From the NCBI GenBank assembly GCA_963797095.1, contig CAWCNY010000001.1, positions 1 through 64,000 of the forward strand: a DNA stretch of 64,000 bases, given 5' to 3'. The notes below the pieces were generated by a model. It had not been told where the DNA came from, ran no database searches, and worked only from the letters and a program-made list of their open reading frames with translations. Position numbers and translations under genes: made by a program. The DNA comes from an uncultured Chloroflexia bacterium. GTDB lineage: Bacteria; Chloroflexota; Chloroflexia; QHBQ01; JADMIH01. Shown piece after piece: positions 9 to 58,445 of the stretch (the first letter of the stretch is position 1; each line of letters starts with the position of its first letter).

Positions 9-905
9 GTGAGCGCGCTGCTTGCGTTCGCGGCGATACTGCTGGGGGCGGCCACGTTCTTTTCGAGCAGGCTGACCCGGCCATTGACCAGGTTGACGAG
101 GGCGGCGCGGACGATGGCGGAGGGGGACCTGAGCGTGAGGGTGGGGAATTCGCCTGTGAGAGAGATTGATGACCTGGCCGGAGCGTTCAATAGTATGGCG
201 TCGTCGCTGTCGGATGCGGACAGGCAGCGCAGGCAGATGACAGCGGATGTGGCACATGAGTTGCGCACTCCGCTGTCGATTATCAGGGGGAGGTTGGAGG
301 GGATACAGGATGGGGTATATAGCGCTACACCCGCCGAGATCGCCACGCTGCTGAATGAGACTGCGTTATTGGAGAGGTTGATCGAGGATTTGCGGGTGCT
401 GGCCCTGGCGGAGGCGGGGCAGTTGCCCTTGCACATGGAGGGGTTCGCGCCGGATGCGCTTTTGAGGAGCGTGGCGCAGTCGTTCGCGCAGCAGGCGAAG
501 GGACGGGGGGTGGAGTTGCGGGTAGGTGAAATGGGGGTGCTGCCTGAGGTGGTGGCGGACCCGCAGAGGATCGCGCAGGTGCTGGGGAACCTGGTGGCGA
601 ATTCGCTCAGGCACACTCCCGGTGGGGGGAGTGTGACGTTGAGGGCGTGGCAGGAGAGGCGAGAGGGGGGGCAGATGGTGTGTATGTCGGTGAGCGATAC
701 AGGGAGCGGGATCGCGCCGCAGGACCTGCCGCACATCTTCGACAGGTTCTACCGGGCCGACGCTGCCAGGACGCGGGCGAGCGGTGGGGCGGGGTTGGGG
801 CTGGCAATCGCCAAGAGGATGATCGAGGCGCACAACGGGGTTATTTGGGCGGAGAGCAGCCCAGGGCAGGGGACTACTGTGGCTTTTTGTTTGCCTGTCC
901 AATAG
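9..905 (+). CDS. Sensor histidine kinase (HAMP-HisKA-HATPase, BaeS-like), probably 5'-truncated by the window edge
   Basis: H-box VAHELRTPL, N-box NLVANSLRH, G1 DTGSGI, G2 GAGLGLAI; preceded by a TM helix and HAMP. Confidence 0.92.
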   Translation: MSALLAFAAILLGAATFFSSRLTRPLTRLTRAARTMAEGDLSVRVGNSPVREIDDLAGAFNSMASSLSDADRQRRQMTADVAHELRTPLSIIRGRLEGIQDGVYSATPAEIATLLNETALLERLIEDLRVLALAEAGQLPLHMEGFAPDALLRSVAQSFAQQAKGRGVELRVGEMGVLPEVVADPQRIAQVLGNLVANSLRHTPGGGSVTLRAWQERREGGQMVCMSVSDTGSGIAPQDLPHIFDRFYRADAARTRASGGAGLGLAIAKRMIEAHNGVIWAESSPGQGTTVAFCLPVQ

Positions 906-1149
906 CTGCGGAGTGGGACACTTTGTACTCACCGAAGACCCCATCCCAACCCCTCCCCAAAGTTTTTGCTCTTTTTAGAAGTAGATTGCACGCATGCGAA
1001 GCTGCATCTAAAATTCGGGTGTTTCATATTTAGAACCAGGTCATAAGCTTACGAGTTTGCATCTAAAATTCGGGATGTCTAATGTCTGGGGTGTGGCTGT
1101 ATAATGGGTGTGGGATGGAGAGCATATTTTCTTGTGCAGAGGGGGCGCA

Positions 1150-2034
1150 ATGACCACACCCGACCTCAAGCCGTATACGGTTGCTATAGCTCAGATCAGT
1201 GTGAAGCTTGGCGACCTGGAGTCTAACCTTAAGAAACATCTGGATTATATTGAGCAGGCGCGAGACGCGGGGGCCGCGCTTCTTATTTTCCCTGAGTTGA
1301 GCCTGACGGGGTACTATTTGCAGGATATCACCAACCAGATCGGGATGTCGGTGTCGAAGCCGCGTGGGCCTTTGCGCGCGCTGATTGAGAGGTCGAAAGA
1401 GTACGACATGGACATCTGCGTGGGGTTCGTGGAGGAGAGCGACCGCTTTGTGCACTATATCGCGCAGGCGTACATCGGGCAGGGGGAGATCAAGCACGTA
1501 CACAGGAAGGTGTATCTGCCGACTTATGGGATGTTCGATGATATGCGGTACGTGGGGATGGGGCGTAATGTGCGGGCGTTCGATACGCGGTTCGGGCGGA
1601 TGGGGATATTGATCTGCGAGGATTTCTGGCACCTGGCGCTGCCCTATTTGCTGTGGCTGGACGGGGCCGATACGCTGCTGATGGTGGCGGCGGGACCGGG
1701 GCGCGGGGTGAAGCCGGGGGATGATTACCTGGATACGACGTTTGATGTGATTACCACGCACAGGATATATGCGGAGTTGTTTACTACGTTCGTGTACCAC
1801 TGCAACCGGGTGGGATACGAGGATGGGGTGGCGTTCGGGGGATATAGCACGGTGATCGCGCCGGATGGCGATTTTCTGGCGAGAGGGGAGCATTTCGAGG
1901 AGTGCCTGGTGACGGCTACGGTGAACCCGGAGTCGGTGCGGTTCAAGAGGAGGAGTTTGCCTCTGTTGCGGGACGAGAAGCCGGAGCTGGTGCTGAGAGA
2001 GTTGCAGAGGATTGTGGGGGAGAGGTATGGGTGA
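1150..2034 (+). CDS. Carbon-nitrogen hydrolase (nitrilase superfamily), probable stand-alone glutaminase partner of NadE
   Basis: E-K-C triad motifs FPELSLTGY, HRKVYLP, ICEDFW; lies upstream of nadE. Confidence 0.85.
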   Translation: MTTPDLKPYTVAIAQISVKLGDLESNLKKHLDYIEQARDAGAALLIFPELSLTGYYLQDITNQIGMSVSKPRGPLRALIERSKEYDMDICVGFVEESDRFVHYIAQAYIGQGEIKHVHRKVYLPTYGMFDDMRYVGMGRNVRAFDTRFGRMGILICEDFWHLALPYLLWLDGADTLLMVAAGPGRGVKPGDDYLDTTFDVITTHRIYAELFTTFVYHCNRVGYEDGVAFGGYSTVIAPDGDFLARGEHFEECLVTATVNPESVRFKRRSLPLLRDEKPELVLRELQRIVGERYG

Positions 2035-2139
2035 GTGGGGAGTGGGGAGTGCTTACTGCTTACTGATTTGTGGGTGGTTGGTTGTTGGTGGGATTTGTGA
2101 GGACCTGGGGCTGCGCATATATGTGATTGTGAATGGAGA

Positions 2140-2679
2140 TTGAGCTACATGGAAACGCGACTTAGTAAAGAGGAGTTGATGAGCGGGATCGAGACGGGTT
2201 GGAGGAAGTTGAACGATACTCTGGGGAGGCTGACGCCTGAGCAGATGACCGACATTCGGAATGCGGAAGGGTGGGCTGTGAAGGACCACCTGGTGCATAT
2301 AGCGGCGTGGGAGCGGTCGGTGGCCTCGTATATGCGGGGCGGAACGAGATATGAGGGACTGGGGGTTGACGAGCAGGTGTGGGATAGCGGCGAGGATGAC
2401 ATCATAAACGCGGCTGTTCAGCAGAATTGGAAGGATGCATCGCTGGACGAAGCATTGGCGGAGTTCCGCGACGCGCACAGTGACCTGATGGGGCTGGTCG
2501 GGCCGATGAGCGATGAAGAACTTTACAGGGCCTACAGCGACTTCCAACCTGAGGGAGAGGGGGAGCGAGACGAGCGGCCCATTATCGATATGATCTATGT
2601 CAATACATCGAGGCACTATAAGGAGCATCAGGAGTGGATTGAGAGTCTGGTTGGTAGTCGGGGGACGAGTGACGAGTGA
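2140..2679 (+). CDS. DinB/ClbS-DfsB-like four-helix bundle protein
   Basis: GWAVKDHLVHIAAWE and NTSRHYKEH motifs. Confidence 0.75.
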   Translation: MSYMETRLSKEELMSGIETGWRKLNDTLGRLTPEQMTDIRNAEGWAVKDHLVHIAAWERSVASYMRGGTRYEGLGVDEQVWDSGEDDIINAAVQQNWKDASLDEALAEFRDAHSDLMGLVGPMSDEELYRAYSDFQPEGEGERDERPIIDMIYVNTSRHYKEHQEWIESLVGSRGTSDE

Positions 2680-2691
2680 CGAGTGACGAGT
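2664..2691. repeat. Heptamer tandem repeat (GACGAGT)x4
   Basis: Read directly; same unit at 54449-54504 (reverse) and ~56897-56917. Confidence 0.9.
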
Positions 2692-2749
2692 GTTCCTAGT
2701 TCGTCGTTTCCGACTACCGACTACCGCTACTATTCTAACAGGGGGATTG

Positions 2750-3619
2750 ATGGACGGTAAGAAGCAGGTACCCAAGCTGGCTGAGCCTCGGAATGTCACC
2801 GATAGGCTGGCTATCCACCCGGAGTTGACCAAGAGGCTGCTGGTGGAGTTTATCCGGAACGAGACGCAGAAGTTCGGGTTCAAGCGGGTGGTGCTTGGGC
2901 TGTCTGGGGGTATCAATTCGGCGCTGTCGGCCACGCTGGCGGCGGAGGCGTTGGGGCCGGAGAACGTGGTGGCGCTGATGTTGCCTTATAGGACGAGCAG
3001 CCCTGAGAGCGAGGGTCACGCGCGGCTGCTGATCGAGCAGCTGGGGCTTCCATACGATAAGATCGATGTTACGCCTATGGCGCAGCCTTTGATCGACAAG
3101 TATCCTGATATCAGCGACCTGCGGCGGGGGAATATCCTGGCGAGGATGAGGATGATCTGTGTGTTCGACAGGTCGGCAGCGGAGAAGGCGCTGGTGCTTG
3201 GCACTTCCAACAAGACCGAGACTTTGCTGGGGTATACGACATGGTACGGCGATAACGCGGCATCGATCCAGCCGATAGGGGATCTGTACAAGACGCAGGT
3301 ACGGGCGCTATCGCGAGCAATCGGGGTGCCGCAGCCGATCATCGACAAGAAGCCGAGCGCGGACCTTTGGCCTGGACAGACGGACGAGTCGGAGATGGGG
3401 CTTGAGTACGATGTGGTGGACCAGGTGCTTTATCTGCTGGTGGACGAGAGGCTGGACCCTGACAGGATCGTGGCGAGGGGGTTCAGCAAGACGCTGGTGG
3501 ACAAGGTGATAAAGACGGTAATGAATATGCAGTTTAAGAGGATGACGGCGGTGATCGCTAAAGTGGGGTCAAGGACGCCTGGGATCGATTTCCGATATCC
3601 GAGGGATTGGGGACATTAG
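2750..3619 (+). CDS. nadE: NAD+ synthetase (synthetase domain only)
   Basis: GLSGGINS PP-loop, GNILARMRM, GTSNKTE, GYTTWYGD, DLYKTQV, KKPSADLWPGQTDE. Confidence 0.93.
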   Translation: MDGKKQVPKLAEPRNVTDRLAIHPELTKRLLVEFIRNETQKFGFKRVVLGLSGGINSALSATLAAEALGPENVVALMLPYRTSSPESEGHARLLIEQLGLPYDKIDVTPMAQPLIDKYPDISDLRRGNILARMRMICVFDRSAAEKALVLGTSNKTETLLGYTTWYGDNAASIQPIGDLYKTQVRALSRAIGVPQPIIDKKPSADLWPGQTDESEMGLEYDVVDQVLYLLVDERLDPDRIVARGFSKTLVDKVIKTVMNMQFKRMTAVIAKVGSRTPGIDFRYPRDWGH

Positions 3620-3748: not shown

Positions 3749-4324
3749 ATGGCACTTACTAAGCTGACGGTTGAGGATTTTGTTGAGCAGTTGGCTTCGG
3801 CCAGCCCCACGCCGGGTGGGGGGAGCGCTAGCGCACTGGCGGGGGCTATCGCGGCGGCGCTGGTGGAGATGGCTTGCAACCTTACGGTGGGGCGAGAGAA
3901 GTTCCGGGATGTGCAGGAGGAGATGCAGATCGTGCTGGGGAGGGCAAAGGAGTTGCGCGAGCAGCTGCTGGCGGCTGTGGAGGAGGATACGGACGCCTAC
4001 GACAAGGTGAGCCAGGCGTACAAGCTGCCGAAGATGACGGAGGAGGAGAAGAACGCGCGGTCGGCGGCTATACAGGAGGCGTTGAGGTACGCAACGGAGG
4101 TGCCGTTGAAGGCGGCGAAGGCGGCGATGGAGGTCGCGCAACTGGCGTTGATAGCGCTGGAGAAGAGCAACCCCAATGTGGCTTCGGACGCGCGAGTGGC
4201 GCGAGTGCTGGCGGATGCGGCGCGAGAGGGGGCTACCGCGAACGTGGAGATCAACCTGGGGAGCATCACCGATGGGGGATTCGCGGCAAAGATGAGGGAG
4301 GAGCTTGAGAGCTTGCACGGGTAA
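3749..4324 (+). CDS. Cyclodeaminase/cyclohydrolase family protein (FTCD C-terminal domain)
   Basis: LASASPTPGGGSASAL, D..AYDKV..AYKLPK, NPNVASDA, NVEINLGSI. Confidence 0.88.
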   Translation: MALTKLTVEDFVEQLASASPTPGGGSASALAGAIAAALVEMACNLTVGREKFRDVQEEMQIVLGRAKELREQLLAAVEEDTDAYDKVSQAYKLPKMTEEEKNARSAAIQEALRYATEVPLKAAKAAMEVAQLALIALEKSNPNVASDARVARVLADAAREGATANVEINLGSITDGGFAAKMREELESLHG

Positions 4325-6015: not shown

Positions 6016-6543
6016 ATGGAGCACAATGTCAAAGTAGTCGTAAATGGGCAAACCTACGCCCGCTCGGTAGAGCCGCGCACCCTCCTGAGCGATTTCATTC
6101 GCCATGACCTGGGACTGACAGGCACCCATGTCGGCTGCGAGCATGGCGTGTGCGGGGCCTGCACCATCCTCCTAGACGGCGTGCCAGTTCGCTCATGCCT
6201 CACCTTCGCGGTGCAGACCGACGGCCGCGAGATAATGACCGTCGAAAGCCTCTCCGGCGACCCGTCCGACCTCCACTCCCTCCAGCAAAGCTTCTGGGAG
6301 GCCCACGGCCTCCAATGCGGCTTCTGCACCCCCGGCTTCCTGATGACCATCCTCCCCTTCCTCGATGAGAACCCCGACCCCTCCGAGCAGGAGATACGCG
6401 AGGCCATTTCGGGCAACATCTGTCGCTGCACAGGCTATCAGAACATCGTGGACGCGGTCAAACTGGCAGCCGCCAAGCGCCGCGCAAAGATCGTAACTGC
6501 CGCAGATGAACAGGATGAGCCGGAGGAAGGGGGGGTACTATGA
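6016..6543 (+). CDS. (2Fe-2S)-binding subunit of a xanthine dehydrogenase/CoxS-like molybdoenzyme
   Basis: GCEHGVCGAC, QCGFCTPG, CRCTGY. Confidence 0.93.
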   Translation: MEHNVKVVVNGQTYARSVEPRTLLSDFIRHDLGLTGTHVGCEHGVCGACTILLDGVPVRSCLTFAVQTDGREIMTVESLSGDPSDLHSLQQSFWEAHGLQCGFCTPGFLMTILPFLDENPDPSEQEIREAISGNICRCTGYQNIVDAVKLAAAKRRAKIVTAADEQDEPEEGGVL

Positions 6544-25850: not shown

Positions 25851-28091
25851 ATGCACGTCTATCGTCGTTTGTTGCTGGCCTTCGGATGCCTTATTGTGGG
25901 CACTCTTGGCCTGCTTGTGATGGTTGCCTTTGCCCGAACCACCGAGGCATCCGCGCCCTCGGCCAGTCTGCCCCGTGCGGCAGCCACCTGCGTGCCCTAC
26001 TGGTCAGCCGTTGCCACTCAGAACGTAGATACCAACGACAACGTGCTCGCGGGAGTGGCGGTGAACTACCCTACCGACGTGTGGGCGGTCGGATACTACA
26101 CCGACACCGGTGGGGTTGGGCAGGCGATGATCCAGCATTACGACGGCAGCACCTGGTCCCTGGTAGCCATCCCTCACCCCGGCACAGGCGGGAACTACCT
26201 AGAAGCGATAACCGCACGCGCCGCCAACGATATGTGGGCAGTAGGGTTCTATCGAGCAACCGCCGGCAGCGTGCCGCAGACTTTAGTGCTCCATTCTAGC
26301 GGTGGCGCATGGACCCAGATGACGAGTGCAAGCCCAGGAGCCGCCGAGAACTACCTGTACGGAGTGGCGGCGGTATCGGACAGCGATGCCTGGGCTGTCG
26401 GTTATTACGCGAATACCGCGGGCTTATACCGCACCCTCACGCTTAGATGGAACGGTGGCGGTTGGAACACCGTTTCAAGCCCAAGTCCTACGCTCGGTGG
26501 GGCCGGGCTGCGCGGTGTGGTGGCTGTATCGGCCAGCGAGGTCTGGGCTGTAGGCATTCAAGTTGACATAACCCTAACCTACAGGATGTACGCGCTGAAA
26601 TGGGACGGCGCATCGTGGAGCACAACCACCACGCCCAACACGGCGGGGTGCATACTGGTGGCGGTGGCGATTGCCACCCCCGGCAACTTGTGGGCGGTTG
26701 GCGGCTGCCAGAACCCTTCATTCCAGACCGCAATAATCAAGTGGAATGGCTCTGCCTGGTCCACCGTGGCATCGCCCAACCCTGGCACCGGAGATAATCT
26801 CCTGGGTGGGGTTATATCGTCCTCTACCGGGGCCGAAGCCTACGCCGTCGGCGGCTACAACGACACGGGCGGCCCCACCCAGGCCCTCACTCTCTACTGG
26901 AACGGTTCCGCCTGGACACCTATACCCGCCGATAACCCCGGTTCGACCGGAAATGCCCTGCTGGCTATATCGAGCAGCCCTACTATCGCGGATACGCTCT
27001 GGGCGGTGGGATCACAGGATAGCGGTGGGCCTTCCCAAACGCTTGCCGAACAATTCGGCTACCTGTGCGAGACGGCCACCCCCACGCCTGTCGAGGGCAC
27101 ACCATCCCCCACCTCTACCTCAATCCCCACCGCAACCAATACATCCACGCCAACGGCTGCGGCCTCCACATCTACACCAACCGCCGCCTCGACCACAGCC
27201 ACAGCTACGTCCACACCGATATCCACCGCTACATTCACAGACACCCCAACGGCAGAGCCGACTTCCTCATCTACACCTATGCCAACCGCCACCCAGGTTA
27301 CAGGTACCACACCAACATCAACCCCGCCTATTTCGACTAACACGCCGACGAATACCCCGGCTCAGCCAACGGCTACGGCCACGGCCACAATAGCCGCAAC
27401 TGCCACGCCGACCGCTTGTACTTTGCAGTTTGCCGATGTGCTGCCGGACAACACGTTCTATGCGTTCGTCGAATGTCTTGCCTGCAAAGGCATTATCAAC
27501 GGCTACGCCTGCGGAGGGCCGGGAGAGCCGTGCAACGGGAGCAACGACCCCTATTTCAGGCCGGGCAACAATGTGACGCGAGGCCAGATCGCAAAGATCG
27601 TGTCGAACGCGGCGGGCTTCAACGACACGGTCACGGGCCAGACATTCGAAGATGTAGCGCCAGGTAGCACCTTCTACGATTTCGTGGAAAGGTTAGTGAG
27701 TAGAGATATAATGTCGGGCTATGCCTGCGGCGGCTTCGGAGAGCCATGCATTGGGCCAAACAATCGCCCTTATTTCAGGCCGAACAGCAACGCCACCCGT
27801 GGGCAATTAGCCAAGATCGTGTCGAACGCCGCGAACTTCAACGACACGGTTACAGGCCAGACTTTCGAAGATGTAGCGCCAGGTAGTACCTTCTATAACT
27901 TCATTGAGAGGTTGGTATCACGAGGTGTAATGAGCGGGTATGCCTGCGGCGGCCCCGGTGAGCCATGCGTCTCACCAAACAACAGACCCTATTTTCGGCC
28001 CGGCAATCTGGTGACCAGGGGGCAAACCTCAAAGATCGTTGGCAATACCTTCTTCCCGTCATGCGAGCCAGCTCAGCTAAATCCACAATAG
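25851..28091 (+). CDS. Paralogous secreted beta-propeller protein with Thr/Pro linker and SLH repeats
   Basis: Same WAVG/WNG repeats and SLH repeats as the upstream gene. Confidence 0.85.
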   Translation: MHVYRRLLLAFGCLIVGTLGLLVMVAFARTTEASAPSASLPRAAATCVPYWSAVATQNVDTNDNVLAGVAVNYPTDVWAVGYYTDTGGVGQAMIQHYDGSTWSLVAIPHPGTGGNYLEAITARAANDMWAVGFYRATAGSVPQTLVLHSSGGAWTQMTSASPGAAENYLYGVAAVSDSDAWAVGYYANTAGLYRTLTLRWNGGGWNTVSSPSPTLGGAGLRGVVAVSASEVWAVGIQVDITLTYRMYALKWDGASWSTTTTPNTAGCILVAVAIATPGNLWAVGGCQNPSFQTAIIKWNGSAWSTVASPNPGTGDNLLGGVISSSTGAEAYAVGGYNDTGGPTQALTLYWNGSAWTPIPADNPGSTGNALLAISSSPTIADTLWAVGSQDSGGPSQTLAEQFGYLCETATPTPVEGTPSPTSTSIPTATNTSTPTAAASTSTPTAASTTATATSTPISTATFTDTPTAEPTSSSTPMPTATQVTGTTPTSTPPISTNTPTNTPAQPTATATATIAATATPTACTLQFADVLPDNTFYAFVECLACKGIINGYACGGPGEPCNGSNDPYFRPGNNVTRGQIAKIVSNAAGFNDTVTGQTFEDVAPGSTFYDFVERLVSRDIMSGYACGGFGEPCIGPNNRPYFRPNSNATRGQLAKIVSNAANFNDTVTGQTFEDVAPGSTFYNFIERLVSRGVMSGYACGGPGEPCVSPNNRPYFRPGNLVTRGQTSKIVGNTFFPSCEPAQLNPQ

Positions 28092-28113
28092 ATGGTGTAT
28101 CTGCCTGCTGGGA

Positions 28114-28311
28114 TTACCCCGATTTAGATGACTCGCGGTTTGATTCGAAATGGATGTTCTCGAATGTTTCCGGGCTAGCGTAACCGAGAGCTGAGTGCCG
28201 GCGCTGGCGGTTGTACCACACCTCGATGTATTCGAAGATCGACTGACGAGCTTCGGCTCGTGAGGGGTAGACACCGGTGGCGCATTCAGCCTTGAGCGTG
28301 GACCAAAAGCT
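28114..28311 (-). pseudogene. IS3 orfB C-terminal exon
   Basis: SFWSTLKAEC..IFEYIEVWYNRQRRHSALGYASP. Confidence 0.88.
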
Positions 28312-28316
28312 GGTGG

Positions 28317-29600
28317 CTAAGGTTCTACGGTCGCCCGCAGAACCTCGCCTTCAAATCCGGACGTGAGGGTTTCCCGCTCATCCGGCTCCTTAGCTATACG
28401 GTCCTTGTCCTGGATACCTCGTACGGTAGACTTATCGCCTGCCGTTTTTACGTCGTGACAATGCCGATGGAGTAGTTGCCAGTTCGCGTATGTTTCTCGT
28501 CCTCCCCGACTTTGCGGTGTTATGTGGTCCACTTCGCGTAGCTCTTCTCCACCTCTGAAGTACAACTTGCACCAGGCGCATTGGCCGGCCTGCCGTTTGA
28601 GCAGTACTGCTGCTCTCGTTGTCAGACCCGGATAGCGCCCTAGCCTGCTTGCCCAGTATGCCCAGTCGCCGTTGTATGGGCTTTGTCGTCCCTCGACTTT
28701 GACATGCCGTCTGATTGCGGTACTTGCGTGCCTTATCAGCGCAGGTCCATTGTCGGAAACGAATAGCCAGCGCATCTCGCCAGGACGCTTGCGGCCTTCA
28801 ATGTTGAAATACTTGCGTACTACCCACCGATTGCCTTTACGTGGGTGGCGATATTGCGCCCAGCGCATCAGCTTGCGCCAGACCAGGTGGTCTAGCCTGC
28901 TGTATGCTCTCGACGCTACAACTGTGCGATAATACCCACTCCAACCCCTGATTTTCGGGTTCAGTGTTGCTATCACGGTGTCTTGTGACGCCCCTCTTAG
29001 CTGGGTAATTACCTCACCTAGCGCTGCATAATGCCGCTGCAACGCACTTTTGCTGGGTTTGATGATGGTCTTGAAGTCTACCCATTCCTTAGTTCGTCCT
29101 CCTGTTTTCACAAAGTGCGTTTTACCTACCTGGTAATGCCGCACATTGAAGCCCAGAAAGTCGAACCCCGCTTCGCCCGCTTCGCCCGCTTCACCTTCAA
29201 CTGCTTGCAGTGTGTGGGTTATGCGAGTTTTGCTTGGCTTCAACTCCAGACCCATGTGTTTCAGCCATTCCGCTACCACTTCCTTGCTCCGCTGGATTAC
29301 TGCCCGGTCACGATGCAGGATGACCAGATCGTCGGCATAGCCAATGATCTGGGGTTTCCAGTTCTGTATCCTGTGGCCATCGACTATGTGATTGGCAGGG
29401 AAGGCATCACGCACGGCTGTTTCCAGTCCATGCAGCGCCACATTGGCCAGCAGAGGAGAGATTACACCCCCTTGCTGGGTGCCTTCTTCCGTCGGGAACA
29501 GTTCGTCTCCATCCATCACCCCTGCTCTTAGCCAGCCTTTGATGACCCGCCTCAGCATTGGGGTAGTGTCCAGTTTCTCAAGCAGTGCCGCCTGGTCGAT
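28317..29600 (-). CDS. ltrA: Intron A RT/maturase/HNH, C-terminal exon
   Basis: GTQQGGVISPLLAN, GYADD, GFDFLGF, LNPKIRGW, C-terminal CAWC..EVDHI..LLHRHCH. Confidence 0.9.
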   Translation of the reverse strand: MDQAALLEKLDTTPMLRRVIKGWLRAGVMDGDELFPTEEGTQQGGVISPLLANVALHGLETAVRDAFPANHIVDGHRIQNWKPQIIGYADDLVILHRDRAVIQRSKEVVAEWLKHMGLELKPSKTRITHTLQAVEGEAGEAGEAGFDFLGFNVRHYQVGKTHFVKTGGRTKEWVDFKTIIKPSKSALQRHYAALGEVITQLRGASQDTVIATLNPKIRGWSGYYRTVVASRAYSRLDHLVWRKLMRWAQYRHPRKGNRWVVRKYFNIEGRKRPGEMRWLFVSDNGPALIRHASTAIRRHVKVEGRQSPYNGDWAYWASRLGRYPGLTTRAAVLLKRQAGQCAWCKLYFRGGEELREVDHITPQSRGGRETYANWQLLHRHCHDVKTAGDKSTVRGIQDKDRIAKEPDERETLTSGFEGEVLRATVEP

Positions 29601-32146
29601 GTGGAGTCAAGGTGGGACGCCTTGCTGCCTTGCGGCTGGTAGGTTTTCCCACCGTGCTCCCCAAACCGGACAGACCGCTTTCGCAGTATCCGGCTCTCAC
29701 TGTCATCCTGTGCTTTGTTGCTGCTTTTGCTGCTTTTGCTGCTGTGTCCGCCGCACGTGACAGGCATGGCATAACCCTGTTTTCTGGAGTGCGTAGCCTG
29801 CTGCCGTCCGGTCGTTTTTCTTCGCCAATCCGCTCCGATGATGTACTTCTGCTACTTCTGCTCCACATTCCGCACATTTGTAGTTCTGCATGGCTTTGGT
29901 TTCCTCGCGTTGCCAGGGGCTGCGCCCTATTGCTGCCGAGTACACCGCCCACGGGTTTTCCTGTCGATCTACGTCCGTCGCGGGTTTGCGCACTTCATAT
30001 AGCGACTTTCGGCCAATGGACCGTACTAGCCATACTTGTTTGCCTGTCTGCGGCGATTTGTAGACGATGCTCCGTCTGCCGTTGACCATGCCGTAGTATT
30101 TGCGCATCACCTTCTTGGCCCCACTTTGCTTGTGCCGTTTGTTCAGATAGCGCACCAGGCACCAGAAGGCATGGTGCAATACTCTGGCGAACACTCGATG
30201 CGGGTTTGTTGCATAACAGTAGTAGTTCATCCAACCTCTCAGGACGGAGTTCAACCCTTGATCATGTCGCCCGGCTCGATGCTGGTTTGGCGGGTCAGCT
30301 TAGCCACTTTGTGCCGCACTGCCATTTCTTTGTCGTGAGGTATGAGTAAACGAGGGGCTTTGTTCACGCCATTTAGGCGTGATTTGTCCCCACGTATATC
30401 AAACCCCAGAAATCTCACCCGGTCCGTCCAGTGCGTTACCAACGTCTTTTCCGGGCTCAGTGTCAGCTTCAGGTGGGTCTTTAGCCACTCTGCCAGTCGT
30501 TGCTTGACGGCATTTGCTTCGTCCTTTGAGTATCCATACAGTAGCAGCGCCCAATCGTCGGCGTATCGAACGTAACCTAAGTGTCGTACGGGTAGCCTAT
30601 GTGGTAGGCGCTGTCGTTGCTCTTTCAACTGGGCGATTTCGCTGAGCAGTTGGGCATGTTTTTGCGGGTCCGTTTCCCGTTGCAGCCGGTGCGAGCGGCG
30701 ATTGACCTTGAGATTGATACGGTTGTAGGCAGGGTTAGTGCCTTCGTGACCGCGTTCTAAGGGTTGGTTTGCCCCAAGCTCATCTTCGATGTACTGGTCA
30801 AATTCATGCAAAATTACGTTGGACAGTAACGGCGAGAGTGTTCCACCCTGGGGTGTACCACTCCAGGTCGCATGCCATTGCCAGTCTTGGAGATAGCCAG
30901 CCTTGAGGAATTTGTGGATCAACTCGATCAGTCGTTCGTCGGCGATTTTCTTGCGCAGGAGCCTAAGCAGCACCTCATGATCGATTCGGTCGAAGAAACT
31001 TTCTAAGTCTCCCTCAATCGTCCATGTAGGTGTACGCTTTAGCAGATATGCTCGTAGGGCTGTATGACAGCTCCGTTGGGGCCGAAAACCGTGCGCACAG
31101 GAGCGAAACATCGGTTCGTAGATTGGTTCCAATACGAGCTTGATGGCGCTCTGGACCACTTTGTCTTCAGCGGACGGGATACCTAACGGGCGAAACTTTC
31201 CGTTGCGCTTGGGAATGAAAACTCGTCGTACAGCAGTAGGTTGATAGGAGCCGTCGCGTAGTTTTGCTGCCAGCTTGTCCAGGTGGGCAGTGTCCAGGTC
31301 CTTGCCTTTGACACCATCTGGCCCAGGGGTGTTGAAGCCCTTGTTGGTCCTTATGGCGTCGAGGGCGAAGCCTAGCCAGGCCCGGTTGCTAACCAGTCGA
31401 TAGAGTGTATCGAAGCGTTTCTGCGAATTGGCCTTGGCGTTGGCCGCAGCCAATTTAGCCAGGTGTGCTTGTTCCAAACAGACGTTGTTCATGGGTCTAG
31501 TTCCCTCCATCGCTTGAAACATTCACGTCAACACTACCGCCCTTCCCCATGCACGCGGCTTTCCCGCGCTCGGAGTACTATGGCGGCTCCGCGCCAGGAG
31601 TAAGCTTCGGCTCTCTCACAACCTATCCTTCTCCTTTCGGAGTGGGAACGCTTGCACCTGGTTCCCCGGTAGCACCATATGACTTTGCCCACTGGCCGTA
31701 GGTGGGACAACCGCATACGCGACCTATGTCGCGCTGAAACCCATCCTGCTTCGGTGGTAGAGCCATTGCAGTCCTCCGTTCCGCTCCGTGTGGGGGAGAG
31801 GCCGCATACGACAAACATGTATACAACCGTAGGGTTTCACCAGCCCGTCAATCGCTCTGAACTGGTTATGCTATGTTAGCGGCTATATCCTTTGCAAATT
31901 CGACCTGCTCACCATAGTCAGCTATCCGTGCAGCAATCTCCTGTTGGTACAGCGATTTCCCGCAAGACCGCCGCATGTCCCCCTCCGGGCTAACCACTAT
32001 TGCACCGGGCTTATTGTGCTTCGTCATTCGTCACCGGCACCCCCTACTGAGTGAAGTCAGCAGGGCGGGAGGGGTTAGGAACAGATATCTCTACCGTATC
32101 TGTGGGCTGTTCACAGCCCAGTCATATGGCACCCTAACGGGCGCCC
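29601..32146 (-). mobile_element. Group II intron B (IIA / Ll.LtrB-like), inserted in the RT gene of intron A
   Basis: 5' GGGCGCCCG at 32146; DV GAGCCGGATACTGCGAAAGCGGTCTGTCCGG; ends ..TTGACTCCAC; removal restores TTC GAT AGA|ATC GAC CAG. Confidence 0.9.
29703..31492 (-). pseudogene. ltrA: Intron B RT/maturase/HNH with one frameshift near 30252
   Basis: TPGPDG, RPLGIP, GFRPQRSCHTA, SGTPQGG, RYADD, FLGF; second frame LNSVLRGWMNYY..CAEC..EVHH..CHACH. Confidence 0.88.
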
Positions 32147-32740
32147 TCTATCGAAGCAACTGGCAATGTCGGCATCAAGTACATACTTTTGCATGTACTT
32201 GATACTTTCAAAGATAGCGGCAATGGCATCATGGGCTGAGCGTCCTGGCCGAAAACCATAGCTATTGGCTTCGAATTTGGCTTCCCATTCGGGTTCAAGA
32301 GCCAGTTTGACCAATGCTTGTGCTGCTCGGTCATGCATCACGGGAATACCGAGAGGCCGTTTATCCGTTGTGCCAGGTTTGGGTATCCAAACCCTTCGCA
32401 CCGGTTGTGGCTTACCTCGCAGGTCCAGGGATTGTACAAGCTCCATGCGTTGTTGAGGAGTTAGAGATTTCACCCCGTCAATTCCGGCGGTTTTCTTGCC
32501 CTGGTTATCCTGTGTTACCCGTCTTACCGCCAGGCATCTGGCTGCCCAGGACCTAACCATCAGGTGTTGCAAGTTGTGTACAGTTTTTCTATCGTCACGT
32601 TGTGAGGCTTGGTAAATGCGCTTTTGGAGCTTGAAAACCGCCTGTTCGATTGCTCGCCAGGGGAGGGTTTTCCATTCATACACTGGCATTGGCGCTGGTG
32701 CTTGCTTTTGCATTGGCACTTGCGCTGATACCGTGCTCAT
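32147..32740 (-). CDS. ltrA: Intron A RT, N-terminal exon
   Basis: VFKLQKRIY, AVRRVTQDNQGKKTAGIDG, RPLGIP, SYGFRPGRSAHDA, DADIASCFDR. Confidence 0.9.
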
Positions 32741-33343
32741 GACATTCGACTCCTACTCATGCCCTTACCATCCGTATGCCGACCTGCTCCTCATGAGGAG
32801 CATTTTCCTCGTGAGGAGAACCAACTGAGTGGTTACCCCGTTCCTGGTATTCGTTTTACGCAGTTTTAGGACCGTACTATCCGCCGGGTTTAGTGGGAAT
32901 GAAAACTGGTCAGATGGAAAGCCGCCAGCCCCTATCCTTATCCTTTTGGACCAGGCCATAGAACCTGCGTAGGCCTGTTCGCGCTAACGACGGTTCAGCT
33001 GTACGTTCACTTTCGTTGTCCATGACTGCCTGCTGGCAAGTTATCGGCATCAGGTTTGTCGTTGGCTTGCGTTCCACCCATGCACCGCACTGAGATTGAT
33101 GGTCAGTCGCATCCATGTGGGTGGCGCATTTCCTTGTTCATTTCAAGGATGGGGAATTGGACCAGACCTTACACCACGCTAGACTGTGCTAGACCGTGCT
33201 GGACTGTGCTAGACCGTGCTAGACCGTGCTAGGCCGCACCCCACATCGAATACCAAGTTATCTGAGAAGGCTGATCGGCATACATCCTCCTCAGTCTCAC
33301 ATTCGAGTCGTTATATTGACAATTATGTGAGAACGGGTCGCAC

Positions 33344-34416
33344 TTCCATTACGGCATTGTCGTAGCAATCTCCTTTCCTGCTCATGCTGCACACCATCTT
33401 GTGAGCATCAAGCAACTGCTGATAGTCTTGGGCGGCATACTGGCTCCCTTGGTCCGAGTTATGCAGCACGCCTTCTTGGGGCCGCCGCTGCGTAGTGGCC
33501 ATCTGCAATGCTGAAGCCACTAGCGTCTCCTCCATGTGCTTGTCCATCGCCCAGCCTACTATCTTGCGAGAATAGATGTCGAGCACCGCTGCCAGGTACA
33601 GCCACCCTTCTTTGGTTCTCAGGTACGTAATGTCGCTGACCCATTTTTCGTTAGGTCCGGCCGCCCAGAACTGGCGGTTCGGTGTGTTTGGAGCCACAGG
33701 GTAGCTGTGCTTGGAAAAGGGTGGTTGTTACCTTGTATGCCCGTCGCCTGAGGGCTTTTATGCCTGCCTTTCGCATCAATCGAGCCACACGGTTGAGGCC
33801 GCAAGGTGTGCCTGTACTGTTCAATTCAGCATGTATGCGTGGCGCTCCGTAAGTGCCACGGCTCCTCTTGAATGTGGCTTGTATTGCCGCAGTTAGCTGT
33901 TCGTCAGCCATCTCTCTCCTTGAAGGCGGCTCTTCCTGGCGCTTGACCCACGTGTAGTATCCACCTCTTGAAACCTGCAGTACCCGGCACATTATCTTGA
34001 GTTCGTACTTGCCTCTGTGCCTGTGAATGAAGGCAAACTTCAGTCTTGGTCTTGCGTCTTGGAGAAGATGGCAATGGCTTACTTTAGTATGTCCCTTTCT
34101 TGTCGAACGATCTCCAGCTCTCGCTTTAGCCTGTGTACTTCAGCTTCCGCATCACTTTGATGGCCTGTGCCTGGAAAGGCTCGCTCCACATTTCCCCCTT
34201 CCTTATTGAATGCCCTTTCCCACAGGTGGATCTGGCCAGGGTACAACCCAAGCTCTCGTTCCAGGTCGGCCTTGGTCTTACCACTGCTTTTCAGCAGCCG
34301 CAACGTTTCAAGCTTGTGCTTTTCAGCAGCCGCAACGTTTCAAGCTTGAATTCTCGGGTGTATACTTTCTTCGACGGCCTCTCTGCTCTTTTTGTTTGGG
34401 ACTTGTTAGGCATCAT
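33344..34416 (-). pseudogene. IS3 orfA and N-terminal orfB fragments
   Basis: YTREFKLE, RQERDILK*, YGAPRI, WVSDITY, DQGSQY, CYDNAVME; 32-bp duplication at 34285-34348 breaks orfA. Confidence 0.88.
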
Positions 34417-34479
34417 TTAGACTTCCTCCATATTGTGGACCAGGGTCTTCCTCGTGTCCACTTTGATGGGGGAATCCCA

Positions 34480-34695
34480 GGAAGAGGAGGTGGTCAGAGC
34501 ACGCACACTCCCCAGCCTGTCTGCGAACCGGTTGCCGATCAGGCGTACCAGATTTGCAGTAATAGTGTTGTGCTCAGGGCTAGCGCAGGCCATCGCGTAT
34601 ATCTGGCCGTTGATAAGCTCGCTCTTGTAATCGGCCCTGGTCTCAAGAGCGAGGCATTCTTCCTGGGTATATTGTTTATGGGGTAATGCTGCCAT
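34480..34695 (-). pseudogene. Uma2 (DUF820) family endonuclease, 3'-truncated at the IS3 end
   Basis: KSELINGQIYAMA.ASPEHN.I N-terminal motif only. Confidence 0.75.
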
Positions 34696-58112: not shown

Positions 58113-58445
58113 ATACCAGTCGGAAGCGGCGCTTGCCTTCGGTTTCCCGAAGGTGCTCGACCCGCGTCCGCTGGCCCGAACCCGGCGTGTACCTTTCGAT
58201 TCACCAGGCTCTCACCTCAACCATCAGCGCGTCTTTCGTGCGTGCTGTGCAACTCTGTTGGGTTTTCAGGAATTGTGCCGTATCCACGACTAACCCTTAC
58301 TCCATTGGAGTCGCGGTTGAGCTAGCTCCCTTCGCCCTGTGAACGGTGTTACCGTCTCCTTGGCGGGTCGTTACTCCCACGGCTACTATGGAGCCTCTGC
58401 CCTGCTGTACTCGATCACTCGAAGCGAAGTCAGCCTCCACACGCC
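58113..58445 (-). ncRNA. 3' half of an ORF-less group II intron (intron C) inserted in IS6
   Basis: DIII-like CATAGTA..GGGCGAAGGG; DV GAGAGCCTGGTGAATCGAAAGGTACACGCCGGGTTCGG; ends ..GACTGGTAT directly before TAC ATC AAA. Confidence 0.78.

Follow-up and report, generated by a model that had tools for sequence, protein, structure and literature searches.

A group II intron inserted at reverse transcriptase motif 3 of a second group II intron, within a degenerate IS3-family element of an uncultured Chloroflexia bacterium

A three-level nest of mobile elements was examined in a 64,000-nucleotide stretch of DNA from an uncultured Chloroflexia bacterium (GCA_963797095.1, contig CAWCNY010000001.1), whose genome assembly comprises 8 contigs and 6.0 Mb. 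This stretch is referred to as the window and corresponds to C1:1-64000. Coordinates without a contig prefix are those of the window, C-prefixed coordinates are those of the genome (G000), and L-numbers denote contigs carrying relatives of the elements described. The evidence is DNA sequence, from which splicing, activity and the correctness of the assembly across the nest were also judged. The thresholds used were the gathering score of 40 bits for Rfam RF00029 (domain V/VI) and the cut-off of 160 bits for NF033516 (IS3 transposase), and sister-genome comparisons covered 25 genomes of the same genus.

The outermost element was an insertion sequence (IS) of the IS3 family (34479..28109). Its transposase gene, orfB, was interrupted by group II intron A (33343..28312), and the reverse transcriptase (RT) gene of intron A was in turn interrupted by a second group II intron, intron B (32146..29601). 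All three levels were on the minus strand. A second copy of intron A that lacked B (copy 2, C1:428405-430935) was present elsewhere in the genome. The principal parts of the nest were as follows, open reading frame being abbreviated ORF and chloroplast-like CL:

28109..34479, minus strand: degenerate IS3-family insertion sequence (transposase pieces NF033516, 172 bits; Pfam HTH_21, rve, rve_2 and rve_3)
33344..33697, minus strand: integrase core of IS3 orfB, the 5' exon of intron A, ending ...NAVME (Pfam rve, 98.5 bits; NF033516, 172 bits)
28114..28311, minus strand: C-terminal part of IS3 orfB, the 3' exon of intron A, starting SFW... (rve_2, 49.8 bits, and rve_3; joined to the 5' exon in intron-free relatives)
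28312..33343, minus strand: intron A, 2486 bases when intron B is not counted (GTGCG start; domain V/VI at 28312-28390; CL-type RT)
32147..32740, minus strand: N-terminal part of the intron A protein gene, ending CFDR (RVT_N, 121 bits; RT motifs 0-3; RVT_1 profile positions 1-81)
28317..29600, minus strand: C-terminal part of the intron A protein gene, starting IDQ (RT motifs 3-7, maturase X and HNH; RVT_1 profile positions 102-205; GIIM)
29601..32146, minus strand: intron B, 2546 bases (exact insert relative to copy 2; LtrA-like RT)
30251..31522, minus strand: RT ORF of intron B, 423 amino acids, ending in a premature TGA (ORF list; RVT_1, 126.5 bits; TIGR04416, 282.5 bits)
29703..30254, minus strand: maturase (X) and Cys/His endonuclease-like part of the intron B protein, 183 amino acids in the -1 frame (GIIM profile positions 28-80; Intron_maturas2)

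Removal of 29601-32146 joined TTC GAT AGA to ATC GAC CAG (CFDR/IDQ) in the RT gene of intron A, and removal of 28312-33343 joined ATG GAA to AGC TTT TGG (NAVME/SFW) in IS3 orfB, where the E of NAVME is the Glu conserved in the transposase motif of IS3. Intron B was wholly contained in intron A, on the same strand and with exact boundaries, as expected of a twintron. Both insertion sites were found empty elsewhere. Copy 2 of intron A was 91-92% identical to the window copy and occupied the same transposase codon in an IS3 relative that was only 73% identical; across the site of B it read TGCTTCGATAGAATCGACCAG and its ORF was uninterrupted. The flanking bases permit no slide of the boundary, so intron B is exactly GGGCG...CTCCAC. 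Nine sister-genome loci were examined for the intron A site, and all seven with a 5'-exon match continued uninterrupted through GA(A/G)/AG(C/T)TT, as did the remoter IS3-type genes of the same genome. The two halves of the intron A ORF were equally diverged from copy 2 (synonymous divergence, dS, of 0.173 and 0.176), and the two halves of the IS3 element were 72.8% and 73.8% identical to the IS hosting copy 2. With this matching divergence on both flanks, each level looks like a single interrupted element and not a chimera. An initial annotation of the window had placed a three-level nest at these coordinates; every one of them was correct, and the empty sites matched to the base. The intron-free copies for which it had suggested a search were found as copy 2 without B and as the seven sister-genome IS3 relatives without A.

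Relatives of intron B were found in metagenomes. The family of B was defined as B together with the metagenome contigs L089-L101 and L117, with 64-70% amino acid identity to the protein of B. The 5' junction was visible in eight relatives, and in all eight it followed the sequence (C/F)(F/Y)-D-x of RT motif 3 in another RT gene. The 3' junction was visible in nine, and its first codon was always one for I, L or V, in most cases as I-x-H; the C-terminal part of an RT started directly at the junction in five of these nine (tblastn). L089 and L099 had a common 5' site, and L095 and L096 a common 3' site. L093 was truncated at its 5' end, and L095 and L096 reached a stop after 8 codons. The interrupted RTs were of at least two kinds: A-like RTs, 70-73% identical to the N-terminal part of the A protein (L089, L095, L099), and LtrA-like RTs, about 44% identical to the protein of B (L092, L117). 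On this sequence evidence, the lineage of B is judged to target habitually the RT motif-3 position of other introns, and to do so in introns of different classes.

This habit was confined to the close family. Among 146 remoter relatives (36-45% identity), none lay in an RT split at the motif-3 point: the RT halves were contiguous in 143, and three had no match to the C-terminal part. Two apparent exceptions among the remoter relatives turned out to be contiguous. No relative of B above 45% amino acid identity was found in the species-representative genomes, and B was not found in the 25 same-genus genomes, where just two short matches of 36 and 56 bases occurred, both in one genome (G001). Within its own genome B was single-copy, with no second or close copy, and the other LtrA-like intron proteins were about 40% identical to that of B. 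A 17-base pattern from the 5' end of B matched in two of 400 further genomes from the phylum; these matches were attributed to chance, as they showed no further similarity and the reversed control gave seven matches.

The boundaries and RNA features of intron B were:

32142..32146, minus strand: 5' end of intron B, GGGCG and not GUGYG (start GGGCGCCCGTT in 8/8 relatives with a 5' end)
29601..29698, minus strand: domains V and VI of intron B (RF00029, 49 bits, ending exactly at the 3' boundary; bulged branch A 7 bases from the 3' end)
31810..31818, minus strand: hairpin with a 9-base loop (consensus fold of nine members: 10 pairs, three with compensatory changes)
31810-31815, minus strand: proposed exon-binding site 1 (EBS1) of intron B, TTTGTC, the last six bases of the loop
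31852..31857, minus strand: candidate exon-binding site 2 (EBS2) of intron B, GAGCGA (conserved in the family as GAGCGR)
30255..30257, minus strand: GGG run with one base fewer than in the family, a -1 frameshift (aligned with five full-length relatives)

By far most group II introns start with GUGYG, according to the section consulted of a review (PMC4424553). Because all eight relatives with a 5' end begin in the same way as B, the GGGCG start is read as a trait of the lineage and not as a lesion. The 3' end of B was AC, in agreement with AY. The consensus fold of domains V and VI in the family had 35 pairs, seven with compensatory changes. The proposed EBS1 could form six of six pairs with the exon bases GATAGA (four Watson-Crick and two G-U), and its constant GTC could pair with the Asp codon across the nine members. 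The candidate EBS2 could form four Watson-Crick and two G-U pairs with exon positions -13 to -8 (TTGCTT, the Cys-Phe codons). An alternative EBS2, GAAGCA at B positions 125 and 395, was a perfect complement and was rejected, the segments being absent or unconserved in the relatives.

Three further contigs carried introns 40-45% identical to B with the same start. The intron in the metagenome contig L102 (start at 1598; 44% identical to B) began with GGGCG after SPILSNIY (RT motif 4) of another RT. That in the metagenome contig L104 (start at 226) began with GGGCG after sequence translating to ELDEMW, which looked transposase-like. In L001, a record of a metagenome-assembled genome, the intron (start at 2) began with GGGCG at the contig edge. 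The position of the L104 intron in a transposase-like gene implies that RT genes are not the sole hosts of the wider GGGCG lineage.

The protein gene of B was broken. In the five full-length relatives it was a continuous ORF of 598-614 amino acids, relative to which B had lost one base in the GGG run, so that the frameshift suspected in the initial annotation was borne out as a 1-base deletion in the assembly. Ribosomal frameshifting was considered and rejected: there was no slippery heptamer, and the ORF of the relatives was continuous. The Cys/His endonuclease motifs were recognised by eye, and the Pfam search gave no match in that part.

RT classes were assigned from similarity to solved structures, with LtrA, GsI-IIC and TeI4h as references among all those available. 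The RT of B was closest to LtrA of the Lactococcus intron Ll.LtrB (mitochondrial-like, ML; IIA), its best solved relative at 283 bits, followed by GsI-IIC (159 bits) and TeI4h (123 bits). The C-terminal half of the A protein matched the TeI4h RT with 185 bits and the others (LtrA, IIC proteins) with at most 35. In the part of Mohr et al. (2010, PMC2882425) that treats these classes, ML corresponds to IIA, CL and classes A, B and D-F correspond to IIB, and TeI4 is CL/IIB1. By this similarity A is classed as CL, hence IIB-type, within a reference set that holds no solved structure for A, B and D-F, which are IIB classes as well. The RTs of A and B are accordingly assigned to different classes, as had been proposed from the sequence, A being nearest to TeI4h and B to LtrA.

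A tree of 45 RTs was built by a quick method from B and eight relatives, 30 distant relatives (every fifth distant locus was sampled), the Lactococcus plasmid intron protein, the other LtrA-like introns of the genome and two CL-type outgroups; L117 was left out for its short coverage. The CL-type outgroups were the only class references, classes A, B, D, E and F being unrepresented. The family of B was monophyletic (SH-like approximate likelihood-ratio test, SH-aLRT, 99). It fell outside a clade with SH-aLRT 100 that united the Lactococcus protein with the other 31 ingroup rows except L001 and L102. The Lactococcus plasmid intron protein was 40.6% identical to that of B, and the domain V/VI match spanned 98 bases in both introns. 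Unlike the Lactococcus intron, B starts with GGGCG, and belongs to a family outside that clade, in which the delta-delta' rule is kept in only two of seven members. The Rfam model D1D4-1 matched B with 28.5 bits, below its cut-off; the Lactococcus intron had no D1-D4 match, hence this model carries no class information. The description of B as IIA-like thus holds for its protein, which is nearest to LtrA; protein likeness is the sole basis of that label, and the family lies outside the Lactococcus clade.

Intron A carried RT, maturase and endonuclease domains (RVT_N, RVT_1, GIIM and HNH) encoded in domain IV. The insertion of B broke the Pfam RVT_1 match at profile positions 81/102 between the two ORF halves, and broke TIGR04416 at 136/138, the halves scoring 139 bits (6-136) and 164 bits (138-353). 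The joined ORF was open and stop-free, and its ratio of nonsynonymous to synonymous divergence (dN/dS) against copy 2 was 0.24. The 5' end was the canonical GTGCG, and the 3' end was ...CACC, not AY, and identical in copy 2. Domain V/VI scored 36 bits with RF00029, below the threshold, over the full model length (1-77) and with its 3' end exactly at the boundary. The initial annotation had credited both introns with terminal consensus and with domains V and VI. The former applies to the 5' end of A and the 3' end of B, and not to the 3' end of A or the 5' end of B; the latter applies fully to B, at 49 bits, whereas A remains under the 40-bit threshold despite ending at the boundary. Two further features were located in intron A:

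32914..32919, minus strand: EBS1 candidate in intron A, TTCCAT, the complement of the final six exon bases, ATGGAA (proposed from alignment)
33178..33236, minus strand: 5.9 tandem copies of a 10-base unit within domain I of intron A (TRF; not in copy 2)

At the position corresponding to the candidate EBS1, copy 2 had TTCTAT facing ATGGAG. TACGGT was considered as EBS2 of A and lay 3' of the candidate EBS1, which is the wrong order. From this layout B is placed within the coding loop of domain IV of A, and the ribozyme core of A is predicted to be intact. Intron A could therefore fold and splice with B inside, given protein in trans, and copy 2 encodes an intact protein 89-92% identical to that of A. 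Supply of protein in trans agrees with the account of the Thermosynechococcus elongatus twintron, in the portion of Mohr et al. (2010, PMC2882425) concerned with it.

The ends of the IS3 element were the imperfect inverted repeats TGGGATTCCCCC and, as reverse complement, TGGGATTACCCC, matching at 11 of 12 positions, with the TG...CA termini; the same ends were present in two related copies, one hosting copy 2 and one on C5. A 92-codon ORF (34417-34695, minus strand) extended into the upstream IS3 end. At the other end (28091-28108), 17 bases separated the element from the stop of an opposite-strand gene of 760 amino acids. Three lesions distinguished the element from its two relatives:

34285..34348, minus strand: 32-base tandem duplication in orfA, shifting the frame (TRF period 32, 2.0 copies, 100% match)
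34079..34090, minus strand: site of the earlier programmed -1 frameshift, altered by mutation and now closed by a stop (CTAAAGTAAGC in the window, CTAAAAAAAGC in copy 2 and C5)
33715..33718, minus strand: T-run with one extra T, shifting the frame of orfB (aligned against copy 2 and C5)

The 32-base duplication was in neither related copy. An A-run at the overlap of orfA and orfB is what we take to be the slippery site of IS3 elements; the A-run of both related copies was changed to AAAGTAA in the window, and the orfA/orfB -1 frameshift site was thereby lost. The ORF list correspondingly gave orfB in two frames, 33992..33651 and 33697..33323, and it is possible that the extra T is a homopolymer error of the assembly. 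With the duplication, the lost slippery site and the orfB frameshift, the window IS3 is judged to be dead. The IS3 hosting copy 2 (C1:428202-432055) had a 1-base orfB deletion relative to the other copies and may be defective as well. The third copy (C5:321368-322754) retained just the first ~280 bases of intron A.

The nest is best explained as the product of successive site-specific retrohoming that is now decaying, a reading held with good confidence. We infer the following order. An IS3-family element would first have inserted at the locus. Intron A (CL, IIB-type) would then have entered its habitual site at the transposase codons NAVME/SFW, and intron B, of an unrelated lineage, would have entered the RT gene of A at motif 3 (CFDR/IDQ). 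The motif-3 position would offer a conserved, multi-copy target in the domain IV coding loop, where an insertion leaves the host ribozyme unbroken. The protein of A would be made from the window copy only after B had been spliced, while A would still be able to splice with the protein of copy 2. The proposal that A obtains its maturase only after splicing of B is thus retained for protein from the window copy, and set aside insofar as the intact copy 2 could supply it in trans. Intron B is probably stuck, because its protein gene has a 1-base deletion and the genome holds no close copy. As for the IS3 element, its lesions mean that splicing would restore no functional transposase.

Several observations weigh against this reading. 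No direct repeat flanked the IS3 element (flanks ...CTTCC and GCAGG...), so a target-site duplication was not seen; its absence suggests a deletion or rearrangement beside the IS3. All six EBS1 positions, including those opposite the variable codon, were paired with the intron-binding site (IBS1) in just three of the nine members, and three to five in the others. This loose pairing indicates that RNA pairing alone is insufficient for target choice; pairing presumably accounts for the conserved half of the target, the remainder being either tolerated or recognised by the protein. The base 5' of EBS1 was always G and paired with the first 3'-exon base in only two of the seven members with both junctions, a misfit with the classical IIA delta-delta' rule. 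In L089 and L097 the 5' and 3' host flanks were of unlike type, which may reflect chimeric metagenome assembly across repeated introns. The dN/dS of 0.24 points to past purifying selection on the A protein, and either the inactivation of A would not be old or the signal would come from the other copy. Finally, the join of the nest, the frameshifts in the GGG run and the T-run, and splicing itself are all read from the assembled sequence.

Three rival explanations were considered. The first holds that B is still active, its frameshift being a homopolymer error of the assembly, so that the nest would be a live twintron in a dead IS. The missing base does lie in a GGG run, both frames of B are otherwise open with family-like motifs, and the ribozyme motifs are intact. 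However, further long ORFs of the window (760, 813 and 564 amino acids) were unbroken, as were other intron protein genes of the genome (628 and 653 amino acids), so that indels are not rife in the assembly, and an intron found once and not in 25 same-genus genomes is unlike an actively spreading element. This explanation is considered unlikely. The second is the working cascade that the initial annotation had proposed, in which B splices and restores the protein of A, A then splices, and the IS3 transposase is restored in turn. The common strand at all levels, the exact and in-frame removals, the stop-free joined ORF of A with its low dN/dS, and the conserved parts of the B ribozyme with their compensatory changes would all suit such an order. 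Against it, the protein gene of B is frameshifted relative to five relatives, with no second copy and the nearest other proteins only about 40% identical; the IS3 lesions leave no transposase to restore; and, to judge from the anatomy, the position of B in the domain IV loop would let A fold whether or not B is removed. The ordered cascade is considered quite improbable. The third, that the nest is an artefact joining unrelated repeats, is extremely improbable: assemblies do tend to fail at repeated mobile elements, but both insert boundaries match intron termini and empty sites elsewhere to the base, divergence is matched on both flanks, and B lies at the exact codon used by all its relatives.

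Beyond the nest, the RF00029 scan of the genome gave 22 domain V/VI sites, 19 of them over the cut-off. Four further LtrA-like introns were nested in A-like RT genes of the same genome:

C3:115831-118378: nested intron after YADD, starting GTGCGCC
C1:492-496 kb: nested intron, a partial copy of the C3:115831 arrangement (5' part missing, 5' junction unseen)
C2:823305-825811 and C3:569575-572081: nested introns after FADD, two identical copies, starting GTGCGCC

EBS1, EBS2 and the adjacent base all fitted the exons in the introns C3:115831 and C2:825811 and in the related intron C5:312906. A metagenome contig (L092:280-6147) carried one LtrA-like host RT with two inner introns. The first belonged to the family of B and lay at motif 3 (838-3289); the second was CL-type, with a GTGCGAC start after FDFLGY, a D1D4-7 match of 118 bits (3805-3955) and domain V/VI at 6071-6147. 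RT motifs recur as targets for several intron lineages.

Other intron sites lay outside RT genes. The LtrA-like intron at C5:310435-312906 (minus strand) had an open frame of 653 codons and split a tRNA gene, the insertion point being the anticodon loop's 3' edge; once the intron was removed in silico, ARAGORN called a 77-base tRNA-Pro(GGG). This was the only tRNA-Pro(GGG) gene of the genome, whose other tRNA-Pro genes were two TGG and two CGG (five in total). To our knowledge, bacterial tRNA genes with group II introns are not common. ORF-less relatives of the GTGCGCC introns, 730 and 771 bases long, were found at C6:300490-302231 and C4:713111-713881. Two ORF-less introns were apparently located in one transposase-like gene on C6, and the C4 copy lay within an AGTGAAG tandem repeat. 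In the window, positions 58113-58213 (minus strand) gave a domain V/VI match of 39.6 bits, marginally below the 40-bit cut-off, with a 3' flank that translates to YIKVSGKWCYLYRAV. Several transposase fragments and an IS21-like pair surrounded this site, and there was no RT gene nearby.

Nested introns have been described in other organisms. The work of Dai and Zimmerly in 2003 on Methanosarcina acetivorans reportedly concerned, by its title, homing into related intron ORFs. As far as the sources describe it, the M. acetivorans case resembles the present nest in the repeated site-specific homing into intron sequences or ORFs, with no host gene at stake, and differs in being archaeal and in involving related intron ORFs, whereas here the hosts belong to at least two RT classes and the inner intron to a GGGCG lineage. 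Up to five nested introns are said there to have formed through homing into other introns (review, relevant passage of PMC4424553). In T. elongatus, where the ORF-less TeI3 lies in TeI4 (twintron passages of PMC2882425), an intron likewise occupies a conserved site in the protein-coding part of another. Those passages describe the T. elongatus introns, inner and outer alike, as closely related members of CL/IIB1, with an insertion site between the first and second ATG of the ORF. In the present nest the inner intron is unrelated and LtrA-like, encodes its own protein and interrupts the catalytic RT motif 3. In the same passages, the use of conserved sites within IS elements or other introns is portrayed as a strategy for proliferation in non-essential DNA. 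The Trichodesmium twintron (Pfreundt and Hess 2015, PMC4649490, in the portion consulted) is also bacterial, with sequential splicing reported, whereas here the inner protein gene is broken and the nest is known from its sequence. The statement in the initial annotation that twintrons and introns inside IS elements are known agrees with Mohr et al. (2010, PMC2882425). A limited literature search, which did not extend to supplements, gave no mention of introns aimed at RT motif 3 or of a GGGCG 5' end.

Overall, the nest is a clean, fresh example of known phenomena and not a new kind, and its chief interest lies in how the lineage of the inner intron behaves. By aiming at the codons that its competitors conserve most strongly, such an intron would find a site in almost all other group II introns. 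The protein of the host intron would become dependent on splicing of the B lineage, a simple natural form of parasite-on-parasite control. The lineage-wide GGGCG indicates that the second base of GUGYG can be replaced in a mobile lineage. Both the cross-class target and the GGGCG end are testable with standard splicing and retrohoming assays. It is tentatively suggested, as a possibility held with low confidence, that B and its relatives form an undescribed group II lineage, with a fixed GGGCG and a position as deep sister of ML, much of which would be parasitic on other retroelements through homing into the codons of catalytic RT motifs common to all intron classes. If this is true, then together with the introns that target YADD and motif 7, soil bacteria would contain networks of introns preying on the RT genes of others.

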